Positions 14,889 through 41,446 of a stretch of DNA of 41,843 nucleotides are shown one piece after another. Position numbers and translations under genes: made by a program. The stretch covers positions 1 to 41,843 of the forward strand of contig MNUP01000003.1 in the NCBI GenBank assembly GCA_001871075.1. Direction: 5' to 3'. Positions within the stretch are counted from its first letter, which is position 1, and every line of letters starts with the position of its first letter. The stretch comes from Candidatus Desantisbacteria bacterium CG1_02_49_89 (GTDB taxonomy: Bacteria; Desantisbacteria; UBA1551). Under the pieces are notes generated by a model. The model did no database searches. It saw only the letters and a list, made by a program, of their open reading frames with translations, and had not been told where the DNA came from.

Positions 14889-17800
14889 TTATTCTTTATG
14901 GTATTCCTGCAGGCTTTTGATCCCGATCTGTTTCTTGGTAAGCGACTCTATGCCGTTCACAGCGGCCTGCGCCCCGGACACGGTGGTGATTATCGGGATG
15001 TTGTTCATGACCGCGTAGGCGCGTATTGAGATCTGGTCAGACTTGGGTTTTTTCCCGGAAGGGGTGTTTATCAGGAGCTGTATCTCTTTGTTCTTCATCA
15101 TGTCAACAACGTTGGGCCGGCCCTCGTGGATCTTCTGCACTTCGGTCACCTGAATGTCGTTGTTTTCAAGCACTTTCGCGGTCCCTTTGGTCGCGAGTAT
15201 CCTGAATCCCAGGTCGGCAAGTTTTTTGGCTATGAAGATCATGGAGCGCTTGTCTTTTTCCTTCACGCTTATGAACACGTTCCCTTTCACCGGGAGTATC
15301 GTGCCTGCCGCGATCTGGGATTTCGCGAACGCAAGCCCGAATTCCCTGTCAATGCCCATAACCTCACCCGTGGATTTCATCTCCGGCCCCAGGATGGGGT
15401 CAACGCCCGGGAACCTGTTGAAAGGGAACACCGATTCCTTCACCGCGACGTGGGTTATGTCGACTTCTTTCTCTATCCCCAGTTCCTTGAGTTTTTTTCC
15501 GACCATTACTTTTGACGCGATCTTCGCCCACGGAACGCCGGTTGCCTTGGAAACGAACGGGACTGTGCGGGAAGCCCTGGGATTCACCTCAAGCACGTAT
15601 ATCGTTTCGTTCTTTATAGCGTACTGCACGTTCATCAACCCTATGACCTTAAGCTCTTTTGCCATTTTATAAGTGCTTTCTTTTAACTCAGCGATTACCT
15701 TGTCGCTCAGGGAGAACGGGGGGATGACGCTCGCGCTGTCCCCGGAATGGATACCCGCCTCCTCAATATGTTCCATTATGCCGCACACCACGCATTTGTC
15801 ACCGTCAGCAACCGCGTCCACGTCGATCTCTATGGCGTCTTCCAGGAACTTGTCAACCAGGATCGGATGCTCGGGTGACGCCTCAACGGCGATAGCCATG
15901 AATTCTTCAAGCGATGATTCATCATACACGACCCTCATTGCCCTGCCGCCCAAAACATAAGAAGGGCGCACCATGACCGGATACCCGATCTCCGAAGCTA
16001 TCTTCTTCGCTTCTTTGAACGAGAACGCGGTGCCGTTCTCAGCCTGTTTTAATTTGAGCTTGTCAAGCAGCTGCTTGAAACGTTCCCTGTCCTCGGCTAT
16101 GTCTATGCTGTCAGGCGAGGTGCCCAGTATATTAACGCCTGCCTTCTGCAAAGGCACTGTAAGGTTAAGAGGGGTCTGGCCGCCCAGCTGCACAATGACG
16201 CCAAGCGGTTTTTCCTTCTCTACAATGCTCAGAACGTCTTCCAGGGTGAGCGGCTCAAAATACAGCTTGTCCGACGTGTCGTAGTCGGTGGACACGGTCT
16301 CGGGATTTGAGTTCACCATTATGGTCTCGTATCCCAGTTCTTTGAGCGCGAGCGAGCAGTGCACGCAGCAGTAGTCGAACTCAATTCCCTGCCCGATGCG
16401 GTTTGGCCCCCCGCCCAGGATCATGATTTTCTTTTTATCCGATGTTTCCACTTTATCTGCTCCGTTATAAGAACCTGTCTTCGACAGAACCTTGTTGCTC
16501 GATTGAAAAGTCGAGAGCCTGTCGCAATAAGTGGAATAATAATAATAGGCGCTTGCCCCGCTCACAGGGACCTTGTCCCATGCTTCTGTCTTATTTATTT
16601 TTTTTCTCTGGTTCCTTATCTGTTCTTCAGGGATACCCAGGATCTTGCCCAGGTACCTGTCACTGAACCCCCATTCTTTTGCTTTGCGCAGCAGGGCAGT
16701 GTCCAGTGTCCAGTGTCCAGTGTCCAGTTTTTTATTTTTAAGTTTTGACCTTTGACCTTTGAGTATGAGTTCTTCCTCAAACTCCACCAGCTCCTTCATC
16801 TGCTCAATGAACCATTTTTTTATTTTCGTCTTCTCATACAGCTCGTCAACGCTCACTCCCTTGCGCAGGGCCTCGTACATTATGAACTGCCGCTCGGAGC
16901 TTGGGTCCCTGAGCAGGTCCCTGAGCTCATCGGCTGAGAGCTTGTTGAAATTCTTCGCGAAACCCAGGCCGTACCTGTTGTTTTCAAGCCCGCGTATGGA
17001 TTTCTGGAACGCCTCCTTGTAGTTCTTACCTATGCTCATTATTTCGCCTACAGCCTTCATTTCAGTACCGAGCTTGTCTTTCGCCCCGGGGAATTTCTCG
17101 AACGCCCACCTGGCGAACTTTATGACCACGTAATCGCCGGACGGCGTGTATTTGTCAAGCGTTCCGTCCCGCCAGTAGGGGATGTCCTTTAAAAGATCGC
17201 CGCCCGCAAGGCGCGATGATACCCATGCGATCGGGAATCCGGTTGCTTTTGAAGCAAGCGCCGATGAGCGCGATGTCCTGGGGTTTATTTCGATCGCCAC
17301 TATCCTGTCATCAAAAGAGTTGTGCGCGAACTGTATGTTGGTGCCACCGATAACGCCTATCGCCTCCACGATCCTGTATGAATATTCCTGTAGTTTGTCC
17401 TGGACTTCTTTTGATATGGTAAGCATCGGAGCTGAGCAGAAAGAATCCCCTGTGTGCACTCCCATGGGGTCTATGTTCTCGATAAAGCATACGGTGATCA
17501 TGTTGTTTTCTCTGTCCCGCACGACCTCAAGCTCAAGTTCCTCCCAGCCGATCACCGATTTCTCTATAAGGATCTGGCCGATAAGGCTTGCCGTAATGCC
17601 GCGGGCGGCCGTGAATTTCAATTCTTCCTCATTAAAAACAGTTCCGCCGCCGGTCCCGCCCATGGTATAGGCTGGCCTTACTATCACGGGATACCCCAAT
17701 TTCTTGGCGATCTCAAGCGCTTCCTCGACAGAGTACGCGAGGTCGGACTGGGGCAGGGGTATGTCCAGTTTCTGCATTGTTTCCTTGAATGCCAGCCTGT

Positions 17801-18182
17801 CCTCGCCCCGTTCTATCGCATCCGCCTGAACGCCTATAATGCGGGTCCCGTATTTCTGGAGTATGCCTTTTTTGAAAAGGTCCGAAGCCATGTTAAGGCC
17901 TGTCTGGCCACCAAGGTTGGGAAGCAGGGCATCCGGCCTTTCTTTCTCGATGATCTTTTCAATGAATTCAGCTGTCAAAGGCTCGATATAGGTAATGTCT
18001 GCCATGCCGGGATCAGTCATAATAGTGGCGGGATTTGAGTTCACAAGAATGATCTTGTATCCCATAGAACGCAGAGCCTTGCATGCCTGCGTCCCTGAAT
18101 AATCAAATTCGCACGCCTGCCCGATGATTATCGGGCCCGAACCTATTATTAATACCTTGTTAATATCAGGCAGCTTTGCCAT
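14889..18182 (-). CDS. carB: Carbamoyl-phosphate synthase large subunit, full length
   Basis: [17 protein letters not shown], two ATP-grasp halves (GVHTGDS, GIHSGDS, EVNPRASRT), C-terminal MGS domain. Confidence 0.97.
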   Translation of the reverse strand: MAKLPDINKVLIIGSGPIIIGQACEFDYSGTQACKALRSMGYKIILVNSNPATIMTDPGMADITYIEPLTAEFIEKIIEKERPDALLPNLGGQTGLNMASDLFKKGILQKYGTRIIGVQADAIERGEDRLAFKETMQKLDIPLPQSDLAYSVEEALEIAKKLGYPVIVRPAYTMGGTGGGTVFNEEELKFTAARGITASLIGQILIEKSVIGWEELELEVVRDRENNMITVCFIENIDPMGVHTGDSFCSAPMLTISKEVQDKLQEYSYRIVEAIGVIGGTNIQFAHNSFDDRIVAIEINPRTSRSSALASKATGFPIAWVSSRLAGGDLLKDIPYWRDGTLDKYTPSGDYVVIKFARWAFEKFPGAKDKLGTEMKAVGEIMSIGKNYKEAFQKSIRGLENNRYGLGFAKNFNKLSADELRDLLRDPSSERQFIMYEALRKGVSVDELYEKTKIKKWFIEQMKELVEFEEELILKGQRSKLKNKKLDTGHWTLDTALLRKAKEWGFSDRYLGKILGIPEEQIRNQRKKINKTEAWDKVPVSGASAYYYYSTYCDRLSTFQSSNKVLSKTGSYNGADKVETSDKKKIMILGGGPNRIGQGIEFDYCCVHCSLALKELGYETIMVNSNPETVSTDYDTSDKLYFEPLTLEDVLSIVEKEKPLGVIVQLGGQTPLNLTVPLQKAGVNILGTSPDSIDIAEDRERFKQLLDKLKLKQAENGTAFSFKEAKKIASEIGYPVMVRPSYVLGGRAMRVVYDESSLEEFMAIAVEASPEHPILVDKFLEDAIEIDVDAVADGDKCVVCGIMEHIEEAGIHSGDSASVIPPFSLSDKVIAELKESTYKMAKELKVIGLMNVQYAIKNETIYVLEVNPRASRTVPFVSKATGVPWAKIASKVMVGKKLKELGIEKEVDITHVAVKESVFPFNRFPGVDPILGPEMKSTGEVMGIDREFGLAFAKSQIAAGTILPVKGNVFISVKEKDKRSMIFIAKKLADLGFRILATKGTAKVLENNDIQVTEVQKIHEGRPNVVDMMKNKEIQLLINTPSGKKPKSDQISIRAYAVMNNIPIITTVSGAQAAVNGIESLTKKQIGIKSLQEYHKE

Positions 18183-39395: not shown

Positions 39396-40985
39396 TTAAA
39401 AGTATTTGTTTGTTATAGGCATCCTGCGGTCCTTGCCGAATGACTTGAGCGTTATCTTGGGCCCGATAGGCGCCTGCCTTCTTTTATACTCGCTGCTGTC
39501 AACCATTTTTATCACCTTCTCAGCCAGTTTCCTGCTGAATCCCTCTTTTACGATCTCTTCAAGCGTTTTATCTTCCTCGATATAGCTGCCAAGTATCCTG
39601 TCAAGCAGAGGATAGGGCGGGAGCGTGTCCTGGTCTTTCTGGTCCGGCTTCAGTTCGGCTGTAGGCGGTCTTGACAGGATCCTTTGCGGGATAACGGGTT
39701 TAACCGAATTCCTGTGCCGGGCAAGCCTGTAAACAAGGGTCTTGTATACGTCTTTTATGAGCGCGAACCCTCCGGCCATGTCGCCGTAAAGCGTTGCGTA
39801 ACCGGTGCTCATTTCTGATTTGTTGCCGGTGCTGACCACGAGATGCCCCAGTTTGTTGGATATAGCCATTATGATATTTCCCCTGATCCTTGCCTGCAGG
39901 TTTTCCTCGGTGATGTCCCTGGGCAGGCCCGCGAACTGGTTCGCGAGCAGGCTTGTGTAGAACTCAAGCGCCCGCTGGATGGGAATTACCAGCAGTTTTA
40001 TGCCGAAGTTCCTTGCAAGCCCGTCCGCGTCCTCTCCGGATATCCGGGAAGAGAACTGCGAGGGCATGAACACGCCCAGCACGTTCTGGGCGCCTATGGC
40101 ATCAGCCGCTATCGCGGCAACCAGCGAGGAGTCAATGCCGCCGCTGAGCGCTATCACGACTTTTTTAAAATTGTTCTTGCGCGTGTAGTCCCGCAGGCTC
40201 AGCTTGAGTGCGGCGTAAACTTCTTCTTCAGGCGCCATCAGGCAATTCTTTATGGTTACATTCCTCTTTTCGCTGTCATGGGTTATCAGGTCTTCCTCGA
40301 ACGGTTTCCCCCTTGAAATTATCCTTCCTTTTTCATCAACGATGATTCCGTGCCCGTCAAAGATCAGTTCGTCCTGACCGCCTACAAGGTTATTGTAGAA
40401 GATAATAATACCGTATTTTTTTGCCAGGTTCGTTATCAATTCTTCTCTTTTTTGTATCTTTCCGTATGAATAGGGTGACGCGTTCACCGCGAAGATCGCT
40501 TTTGCCCCGCCCGCTGCCTGCTGCTTTATGGTCTCCTCGTTCCATATGTCCTCGCAGATGCTAACGCCGAACTTCAGCCCGCCTTCCGAAAAAACCTGGA
40601 ATTGTTTTCCGGCTGCGAAATATCTCTTTTCATCGAATACACCGTAATTGGGCAGAAAGACCTTCCTGTGAATGCCGCATATTTTTTTCCCGCGTATGAC
40701 AGCCGCGGCGTTATAAAGGAACTTGCCTTTTCTGTCCGCGAAACCGACGATCACAGTTGCGTTTCCGGTGTTTTCTACGACCTTTCCAAGGCATTTCAGG
40801 TTGTCTTCAATAAACCCGGTTTTGAACAGCAGGTCTTCAGGCGGGTATCCCGTAATTGTAAGCTCCGGGAACGTTATCACGTCAGCGTGCGTTTTTTCGG
40901 CTTCCTTTATATGCCTTATGCACTTCTCGGTATTGCCTTTCAGATCGCCCACGATCGTGTTTATCTGCGCCATCACTATCTTCAT
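39396..40985 (-). CDS. nadE: Glutamine-dependent NAD+ synthetase
   Basis: Nitrilase domain (FPEL, KVFLPNYGVFDEKRYF, ICED) plus synthetase domain (LSGGIDSS, ENLQARIRG, TGNKSE, PPTAELKPDQKD). Confidence 0.96.
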   Translation of the reverse strand: MKIVMAQINTIVGDLKGNTEKCIRHIKEAEKTHADVITFPELTITGYPPEDLLFKTGFIEDNLKCLGKVVENTGNATVIVGFADRKGKFLYNAAAVIRGKKICGIHRKVFLPNYGVFDEKRYFAAGKQFQVFSEGGLKFGVSICEDIWNEETIKQQAAGGAKAIFAVNASPYSYGKIQKREELITNLAKKYGIIIFYNNLVGGQDELIFDGHGIIVDEKGRIISRGKPFEEDLITHDSEKRNVTIKNCLMAPEEEVYAALKLSLRDYTRKNNFKKVVIALSGGIDSSLVAAIAADAIGAQNVLGVFMPSQFSSRISGEDADGLARNFGIKLLVIPIQRALEFYTSLLANQFAGLPRDITEENLQARIRGNIIMAISNKLGHLVVSTGNKSEMSTGYATLYGDMAGGFALIKDVYKTLVYRLARHRNSVKPVIPQRILSRPPTAELKPDQKDQDTLPPYPLLDRILGSYIEEDKTLEEIVKEGFSRKLAEKVIKMVDSSEYKRRQAPIGPKITLKSFGKDRRMPITNKYF

Positions 40986-41092: not shown

Positions 41093-41203
41093 AAAAAGAA
41101 AAAGGCGTCCCCGGGTCATTCAATTCACCTTTAGGGTGAATCATCTTTGACCTGAGGACGCCTGTATCCTCGCAATTTAGATTACTTTGATCCGTGTAAT
41201 CTA
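41093..41203 (-). promoter_or_regulatory. Second (distal) ANTAR-type attenuator in the nadE-glnA leader
   Basis: P2 GAGGAU-ACAGGC-GUCCUC overlaps terminator AGGCGUCCUCAGGUCA...UGACCCGGGGACGCCU-UUUUCUUUUU; upstream hairpin UAGAUUAC...GUAAUCUA. Confidence 0.7.
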
Positions 41204-41344
41204 CCGCACTGGTTATCGCTGTGCGGTTCCGATCATCTTGTAATCGCTGTCATCGCAGTTTTTATCGCTGCGATCGTTTTTTAAATAAGAACCTGCTTCG
41301 CAGAACCTTGTTACTTGGCAACTAAGCGTCGTTGGCAAGTCGCA

Positions 41345-41414
41345 ATAAAAAAACCTTCTATCCCGGCTGCGGGACAGAAGGCTCCTTTACCTTCTCAACA
41401 CTTCATCATGTTGA
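41345..41414 (-). promoter_or_regulatory. ANTAR dual hairpin and terminator (proximal) in the nadE-glnA-glt leader
   Basis: P1 UCAACAU-GAUGAA-GUGUUGA; P2 GAAGGU-AAAGGA-GCCUUC; terminator GCCUUCUGUCCCG-CAGC-CGGGAUAGAAGGU-UUUUUU. Confidence 0.85.
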
Positions 41415-41418
41415 ACAT

Positions 41419-41446
41419 ATTATAGCACAATTTTTCAAAAAGTCAA
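41419..41446 (-). promoter_or_regulatory. sigma70-type promoter of the nadE-glnA-glt operon
   Basis: TTGACT (41446-41441), 16-nt spacer ending TGC, TATAAT (41424-41419). Confidence 0.78.

Follow-up and report, generated by a model that had tools for sequence, protein, structure and literature searches.

Short repeats that fold into hairpins have been described in several bacterial groups. Rickettsia palindromic elements (RPEs) are short hairpin repeats with intergenic copies as well as in-frame copies in functional genes, whose proteins gain surface loops from them (PMC3733652, PMC10969869). Repetitive extragenic palindromic sequences (REPs) and REP doublets forming hairpins (REPINs) are associated with REP-associated tyrosine transposases (RAYTs), and they include GTAG- and CGTC-tagged REPs with intragenic copies (PMC3733652, PMC3333891, PMC3116915). 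The present analysis concerns a 60-bp segment of carB, the gene for the large subunit of carbamoyl-phosphate synthase, in a 41,843-nucleotide stretch of DNA (contig MNUP01000003.1, positions 1-41,843; hereafter called the window) of Candidatus Desantisbacteria bacterium CG1_02_49_89. The segment is probably a copy of a family of very small (approximately 36-75 nt), non-autonomous and structure-dependent mobile repeats. On the best reading of the data, the element behaves like a REP or an RPE and targets (A/G)TAA(G)-like sites, which are often stop codons.

An In-Frame Insertion in carB

The word ATAAG occurs twice in carB exactly 60 bp apart, at 16467-16471 and 16527-16531, and the site reads CCGTT ATAAG AACCTGTCTTCGACAGAACCTTGTTGCTCGATTGAAAAGTCGAGAGCCTGTCGCA ATAAG TGG. 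The net insert is exactly 60 bp, with the precise junction ambiguous inside the 5-nt repeat. The strand of the element that reads AAGAACC is antisense to the gene, and the protein, which matches CarB of Escherichia coli (1bxr) with an E value of 9e-66 over the 201 residues tested, runs YYYYSTY[CDRLSTFQSSNKVLSKTGSY]NGADKVETS across the insert, with CDRLSTFQSSNKVLSKTGSY as 20 extra residues. These residues are missing from all six orthologues compared, namely that of the sole order-level relative included, genome G001 (AFYYYST-YNSPDKVETS), and those of five more distant genomes. At the DNA level, G001 has TCAACGTACAAT where this genome (G000; 2.48 Mb in 150 contigs, with contigs and loci labeled C and L below) has TCCACTTAT, the 60 bp and AAC. 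The spacer between the STY and GGGPN motifs comprises 38 residues here. It has 17-35 in each of the 80 metagenomic CarB relatives compared, and 72 of these have 17-18; the element peptide is absent from all 80. Three have longer linkers of 33-35 residues, unrelated to it in sequence. Judged from these comparisons, the insertion is precise and keeps the frame, as an earlier note on this DNA had claimed from the window alone, and none of the other sequences compared has it. It cannot be dated, since the best metagenomic carB relatives are only about 57% identical. The insert aligns near residues 545-555 of the E. coli CarB structure sequence (1bxr). This is the junction of the oligomerization domain and the second synthetase domain.

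A Family of Repeats in the Genome

Searches of G000 by BLAST with both copies known from the window, by motif scan and with an nhmmer profile gave 18 full copies and 2 partial ones. One is the sibling that the earlier note had recognized in the leader of a gene that it called nadE: AATAA stands at 41284-41288 and 41344-41348, again 60 bp apart, in a stretch that reads ...AATAAGAACCTGCTTCGCAGAACCTTGTTACTTGGCAACTAAGCGTCGTTGGCAAGTCGCAATAAA... (41284-41349). The core that the two copies have in common, AGAACCTG..CAGAACCTTGTT, has an expected count of 0.00, as estimated from 100 shuffled versions of the window. Their pairwise BLAST match is weak by itself (E value of 0.55) and draws its significance from the whole family. 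The further copies that had been anticipated thus exist, and the family proved far wider than had been supposed. The conserved length and multiple of three that the earlier note had also proposed were, in contrast, an accident of two copies, since those of G000 span 61-79 nt including the 5-nt end word (56-74 bp net); elsewhere the range is about 36-75 nt.

Read on the AAGAACC strand, the element opens with (A/G)TAAGAACC, which is followed by a first hairpin that varies freely in sequence and in length (6-22 nt from tag to tag), by AGAACCTTGTTnn / AGAACCTTGTT with two free bases, and by a second hairpin of free length that is closed by nn/nn and TTGTT/AATAA; two complementary bases and AATA(A/G/T) complete it. 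The AGAACC tag is found in all 18 full copies of G000. At the left junction, 17 of the 18 have (A/G)TAAG, an A/T-rich junction of the ATAA type that the earlier note had proposed. Because (A/G)TAAG also ends many copies, the target word is inseparable from the end of the element. Three copies on C38 and two on C88 form head-to-tail arrays, with one ATAAG or GTAAG common to each junction, and in some copies the end repeats reach 8-9 nt (C16:10781; L025). There are no terminal inverted repeats: neither of the ends, ATAAGAACC and GCAATAAG, is the other one inverted, and the 5' end is unpaired in folds. Shorter units without hairpin 1 (ATAAGAACC-TTGTT-hairpin-AATAAG) recur and may represent either deletions between the direct tags or a simpler ancestral module. 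Examples without hairpin 1 and one AGAACC tag are found in genome G042 (C17 17550-17590) and, as partial copies, in G000 (C38 24469-24512 and C143 8210-8252).

Structure and Strand

Both helices covary across copies. RNAalifold kept the outer helix TTGTTnn/nnAATAA in an alignment of 18 copies; its G.U pair is invariant (18 of 18), and in three pairs both partners have changed. When 12 copies from other genomes were aligned without gaps and fitted to an explicit two-hairpin structure, 96.4% of cells were paired, against 83.6% after shuffling (0 of 500 shuffles reached the observed value) and 24-54% in slid controls; 8 of 16 pairs were changed on both sides, 5 of 7 in hairpin 1 alone. At the free nn/nn positions, complementarity is seen in 56 of 73 copies, whereas shuffling gave a mean of 23.4 and a maximum of 36. 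The earlier note had based its case for covariation on the first hairpins of the two window copies, which read CTGTC-TTC-GACAG and CTGC-TTC-GCAG on the plus strand. These differ by one pair more or less, with no compensatory swap; true compensatory changes are plentiful across the other copies of the family. Its picture of a non-autonomous repeat at ATAA junctions with a conserved structure stood up, while mobility of the HUH type is only a possibility.

Single copies fold into two hairpins on either strand, with z scores of -1 to -2.7. The AAGAACC strand is favored by the invariant G.T (12 of 12 and 18 of 18 sequences) and by more canonical pairs. The complement is favored by the loops of hairpin 1, which are TTC, TGC or TAC in 26 of 62 clean cases and correspond on that strand to GNA triloops closed by C-G. 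These were likened to the d(GCGAAGC) type of mini-hairpin (reviewed in PMC13037366). Likewise, the TC/TC internal loop that is conserved in the short form corresponds to tandem G.A on the complement. Wobble pairs in hairpin 1 were tried as an indicator of the strand and gave a mixed answer, with two G.T against seven C.A/A.C, several of them at the tag boundary.

Some other likenesses were considered and set aside. The spacing of TTGTTx to a TAATAA-like word is 13 or 28 nt by eye, which is wrong for a sigma-70 promoter. The string ACCTTGTTAC, present in many copies (e.g., at 16489-16498 of the window), equals part of the universal 1492R primer, the complement of the 3' region of 16S rRNA. This resemblance was judged coincidental, given that the two positions following TTGTT covary with those they pair with. 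Of the likenesses to LexA boxes, attC and dif sites and rolling-circle nick sites, none fits.

Copies in Genes, at Stop Codons and Near tRNA Genes

The capacity to add loops to proteins, which had been predicted from carB alone, is borne out by at least five further in-frame insertions in other genomes (Table 1). Pfam domains run across all five of those listed, and the antisense in-gene copies share the frame of the carB copy (NKVL.K.GSY). A sixth candidate, at L212, probably lies just upstream of the true start.

Most copies sit between co-directional genes. In 12 of 59 copies, the TAA inside (A/G)TAAG is the stop codon of an upstream frame that is open over at least 80 codons (2 of 16 in G000, 5 of 15 in G001, 2 of 7 in G043, 1 of 9 in G042, 2 of 9 in G045 and 0 of 3 in G041), a proportion judged informally to be far above the expectation for random intergenic positions. 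The two cases in G000 are at C57 3124-3127 and C76 10337-10340, and ten more are in G001, G042, G043 and G045. Between co-directional open reading frames (ORFs), 28 copies are co-oriented with the genes and 5 opposed, as counted with crude ORF calling and with tandem copies taken singly; by hand, 15 of 18 copies in G000 are co-oriented, the exceptions being those in carB, in the nadE leader and on C71. Such a bias would follow from a target word that is a stop codon, from a role as RNA, or from insertion into the lagging-strand template, each of which suffices.

Of the 18 copies in G000, six are followed 15-63 nt downstream by a co-oriented tRNA gene (Lys, Gly, Ala, Arg). At these four loci, the left flank repeats, over 8-18 nt, the leader or the first 8-9 nt of the downstream tRNA, and the Gly locus repeats the leader too. 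Two of the repeats, GGGGGTATA and TCGGAATGCTTATGCGGG, are exact, and a third is GCGC(C)TGTA. For the Lys locus, the match between GGGCCGTA in the left flank and GGGCCAGTA in the tRNA comes from alignment only and is absent from the repeat search output. The right flank resembles a D arm, TGCTCAG(GTG), with TGCTCAG common to three of the four loci. The tRNA gene is thus partly duplicated at its 5' end, with the element inside the duplicate; it looks as if entry had occurred at positions 8-10 (TA|G) and the intact gene had been kept or regenerated. Copies from Clostridia lie within tRNA arrays, and tRNA genes flank the copies at L062, L077, L101 and L175, while most copies in G001, G042, G043 and G045 are not beside tRNAs. 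At L063, from an Acutalibacteraceae metagenome-assembled genome (MAG), a Gut-1 RNA (RF01706, 62 bits) adjoins a copy.

Distribution Across Genomes

Copies in other genomes were counted with the exact core pattern (Table 1), and reversed-pattern controls gave none in every genome searched. The exact core is absent from 39 other genomes of the same domain, and it occurs 7-28 times each in Patescibacteria genomes of 0.5-1 Mb. In one of these, G050, seven units with a 45-bp period form a head-to-tail array (C21 4064-4360). Presence in archaea is doubtful, as it depends on one copy in one 2.6-kb contig of one bin.

A scan across species, each represented by a single genome, yielded at least 125 stretches. 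With about 18 specified bases in 596 Gb, hundreds of chance hits are expected. Among the matches listed, the anchored hairpin is present in 63 of 128 distinct hits, and these 63 also show the second module by eye; their sources include classes of Patescibacteria, many gut and rumen Clostridia, and some bins labeled otherwise. A control for chance on viral contigs gave 97 hits, 72 of them distinct, of which one had the hairpin.

Search for a Mobilizing Enzyme

G000 has ten matches to Y1_Tnp (PF01797). One is a canonical IS200-type tnpA of 150 residues (137 bits) at C83 3400-3990 (L013 900-1490), with identical CCCCGCGGCTTGCCGCGGGG hairpins on both sides. The nine others are on C13, C100, C38, C80, C114, C23 (two), C111 and C51; several are diverged RAYT-like proteins (MPR..YH..RGN...) of 160-340 residues, and that on C51 is a fragment. 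Similar Y1 paralogues, with 25-58% identity, are present in G001, G042 and G043. Near Y1 genes, the words AGAACC and GGTTCT do not exceed their background frequency of 0.6 per kb. A search for TnpB found none, and a Y2 enzyme of the IS91 type was seen only in G001, at a locus devoid of the element. Rfam 15 gave no match at gathering score in the window and only noise at E<=10 on the carB copy, and nothing on the element in 20 family loci (E<=1). Searches for strings of the element in one open-access literature collection returned only primers and unrelated matches, which does not show absence from print.

Comparison With Described Systems

The element resembles RPEs in its behavior, being both intergenic and, in frame, translated. 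It probably belongs to a different sequence family, has other hosts and is smaller (36-75 nt), and it differs further in its two unlike hairpins, each after a direct-repeat tag, in its 5-nt terminal direct repeat and in its occurrence in several phyla. With REPs and REPINs it shares tagged stem-loops, high copy number, occasional in-gene copies and a suspected Y1/HUH chemistry, and diverged RAYT-like Y1 genes are present in carrier genomes. Its tag, however, is AGAACC and not GTAG or CGTC, and PMC3733652 contains neither GGTTC nor GAACC. Moreover, its units are arranged head to tail rather than as inverted pairs, and no Y1 gene is flanked by copies as in a REPtron.

As in the IS200/IS605 family and its miniature derivatives, there are no terminal inverted repeats, the hairpins are subterminal, insertion seems to occur beside a fixed word of 4-5 nt and orientation is biased. 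In contrast with that family, the two hairpins of the element are unlike each other and unlike the hairpins of the single IS200 in G000, no cognate tnpA was found, and the left-flank word is the same as the right-end word (ATAAG), which permits tandem arrays. The element is also like the very small dispersed repeats of cyanobacteria, reportedly described by Elhai and colleagues in 2008, and like classical MITEs (transposable elements of miniature size with inverted repeats) such as Correia elements, in being tiny and non-autonomous and in its ability to nest and to enter genes. Unlike a classical MITE, it lacks terminal inverted repeats, and its end repeat belongs to the conserved consensus and so is not a clear target duplication. 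It fails the tested defining features of REP/RAYT systems, IS200/IS605 derivatives and classical MITEs, and matched no Rfam family.

Mobile Repeat or Something Else

The carB copy entered the gene at a TTATAAG site, leaving ATAAG on both sides, and is read through antisense and in frame as a 20-residue loop at a domain junction, the gene staying open. Spread might involve a folded single strand recognized by a trans-acting protein that cuts and joins at (A/G)TAA(G), with a chemistry that may resemble that of IS200/IS605 or REP/RAYT. A Y1/HUH enzyme is a possible mobilizer, though short of a probable one; transposase-free template switching is less likely in that role, and the remaining weight falls on some other, undefined machinery. 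Several observations weigh against such mobility. No mobilizing gene was identified. When 17 Y1 loci were scanned with nhmmer, a copy was within 1.5 kb at 2 (one IS200, one RAYT-like) and 15 had none, so the IS200/IS605 or RAYT element with matching ends that the earlier note had envisaged did not emerge. The copy near the IS200 is 96 bp downstream of it, and the CCCCGCGGCTTGCCGCGGGG hairpins of the latter are unrelated to the element, which speaks against a simple HUH model. Neither G045, with its 18 copies, nor G041 has a Y1 match; both are incomplete MAGs. The copies in G000 are mostly diverged (mean column identity of 67%), with no sign of a recent burst. No empty carB site was found in four groundwater or aquifer runs, which may stem from one campaign; identical contigs span the insert and none skips it. 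The signs of which strand matters point both ways, and the orientation bias and the invariance of unpaired stretches (AAGAACC, AGAACC, TC/TC loop) across phyla fit a functional RNA too.

The family might indeed be primarily a functional structured RNA of the AAGAACC strand, serving in the processing of intergenic or tRNA leaders, in stability or in termination, with the carB and leader copies as accidental non-functional duplicates. This is considered rather unlikely. Co-orientation with the flanking genes in 28 of 33 cases, the copies upstream of tRNA genes in G000 and within tRNA arrays in Clostridia, the invariant unpaired stretches and G.U pair, and the conservation of the core across phyla all suit such a role. 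It is harder to reconcile with copies inside ORFs in both orientations, including the antisense ones in carB and in the nadE leader, with the failure of the Rfam searches, and with arrays of identical units and 7-28 copies in genomes of 0.5-1 Mb, which are typical of selfish repeats; the motifs in the loops and internal loop also look more like stable DNA motifs of the other strand. An RNA function would, besides, be compatible with mobility. About as unlikely is a spread without any transposase, in which replication stalls at the hairpins and the growing strand changes to another template at the short homologies ATAAG or AGAACC, copies an element located elsewhere and returns. Such a process would account for inserts that end with the word preceding them on two scales (ATAAG for the whole element, AGAACC for hairpin 1), for end repeats of up to 8-9 nt and units without hairpin 1, and for the lack of a linked transposase; the four tRNA loci with a partial 5' duplicate, three of which have TGCTCAG in common as their 3' flank, as though it had come along from a donor, point the same way. 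Template switching alone leaves unexplained why words of 7 and 11 nt stay constant from Desantisbacteria-like genomes to Patescibacteria and Clostridia, and the junctions in carB and in the leader are clean, without extra duplication.

Two further explanations concern carB itself. The 20 residues could be removed after transcription or translation in the manner of an intron, a bypass or an intein, leaving CarB at its usual length, and the strong structure of the element and its place in an essential gene might be taken to suggest this. The insert is, however, in frame and free of stops, matches no ribozyme or intron family and is far too short for an intein, and the other in-gene copies are also open and multiples of three, as expected if they are translated; removal is therefore highly improbable. 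Still harder to believe is a native, lineage-specific loop of CarB that resembles the leader copy by chance. The weak pairwise E value and the 33-35-residue linkers in three of 80 relatives are what could be cited for it; those linkers are unrelated, while 18 full copies share one architecture, G001 lacks exactly this segment, and unrelated genes in other genomes contain the same antisense frame, NKVL.K.GSY.

The Copy in the Leader Upstream of nadE

Upstream of the so-called nadE, a strong sigma-70-like promoter is followed by a terminator-like hairpin of 12 bp, rich in G+C, with a z score of -4.5 for a 143-nt stretch. The element starts in or after the U7 tract, antisense to the leader transcript. 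Seven U remain, and the terminator is therefore probably intact. ANTAR terminators have two hexaloop hairpins, the second of which overlaps the terminator. The earlier note had placed the copy in the U tract of such a terminator: the terminator and its U7 tract are real, whereas no Rfam match to ANTAR in the window and no dual-hexaloop motif in the leader fold were seen to confirm its kind. Downstream of the copy on the minus strand, several small hairpins containing GCGAT are found at 41100-41280, together with a second large hairpin and U4 (complement of 41100-41165) about 115 nt before the nadE start codon; the region looks like a multi-part attenuator of undefined kind.

Table 1. Positions of the features discussed, in-frame copies in other genomes, and number of exact-core copies per genome.
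Feature	Genome or contig	Position	Strand	Description
carB	Window	14889..18182	-	Carbamoyl-phosphate synthase large subunit, 1097 aa; frame open across insert
Element copy in carB	Window	16467..16531	+	65 nt including both ATAAG ends; nhmmer E 2e-14
Tags and hairpin 1	Window	16469..16491	+	Tag AAGAACC 16469-16475; hairpin CTGTC-TTC-GACAG 16475-16487; second tag AGAACC 16486-16491
Second module	Window	16491..16531	+	Outer helix CTTGTTGC/GCAATAAG with invariant G.T, around inner hairpin CTCGA..TCGAG 16498-16515
Long ORF	Window	39396..40985	-	Called nadE in the earlier note
Sibling copy in nadE leader	Window	41285..41349	+	nhmmer E 2.8e-13; antisense to leader transcript
Terminator-like hairpin and U7 tract	Window	41347..41381	-	Hairpin 41354-41381, then U7 41353-41347; tract overlaps element end
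Sigma-70-like promoter	Window	41419..41446	-	TTGACT-16-TATAAT, 11/12, with TG; points to so-called nadE
tRNA locus (L003)	G000, C21	5094-5310		
tRNA locus (L009)	G000, C88	35470-35730		
tRNA locus (L010)	G000, C112	10255-10430		
tRNA locus (L011)	G000, C115	2700-3060		
In-frame copies, regulator with ROK domain	G001		Sense	Two tandem copies, 2 x 19 aa; split domain
In-frame copy, GT2 glycosyltransferase	G043		Antisense	14 aa, NFARNKVLAKQGSY
In-frame copy, ComF-like protein	G042		Sense	15 aa
In-frame copy, amine-oxidase-like protein	G042		Antisense	12 aa, SKNKVLPKAGSY
In-frame copy, GTPase	G042		Sense	14 aa after NKxD box
Exact-core copies	G000 (this genome)			14
Exact-core copies	G001 (order-level relative)			36
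Exact-core copies	G042 (Patescibacteria, 0.5 Mb)			28
Exact-core copies	G050 (Patescibacteria, 1 Mb)			21
Exact-core copies	G045 (0.8 Mb)			18
Exact-core copies	G049 (about 0.6 Mb)			9, on one large contig
Exact-core copies	G043 (0.7 Mb)			7
Exact-core copies	G047 (about 0.7 Mb)			7
Exact-core copies	G041 (Clostridia MAG)			4
Exact-core copies	G044 (Pacearchaeota bin)			1, on a 2.6-kb contig

Implications

Selfish DNA that is carried in frame inside proteins is textbook knowledge for Rickettsia and has been reported for some REPs. The element described here is much smaller, and its core words of 7 and 11 nt stay the same in phyla that are distant from each other, mostly uncultured and endowed with tiny genomes. 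A tentative extension is that 36-75-nt, AGAACC-tagged double-hairpin elements form a superfamily across phyla (Desantisbacteria-like genomes, several classes of Patescibacteria, gut and rumen Clostridia and possibly DPANN archaea), moved by a conserved machinery and homing to (A/G)TAA(G), that is, to stop codons and to positions 8-10 of tRNA genes. If so, these elements would punctuate operons, remodel the 5' ends of tRNA genes and write new loops into essential proteins. Should one machinery move the family, it would be a widespread and so far unrecognized shaper of compact genomes, acting at stop codons, tRNA starts and protein linkers, and the element would be a convenient natural marker for it. 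In the annotation of MAGs, copies of the element explain odd extra loops in conserved enzymes as well as intergenic motifs that appear to be novel.

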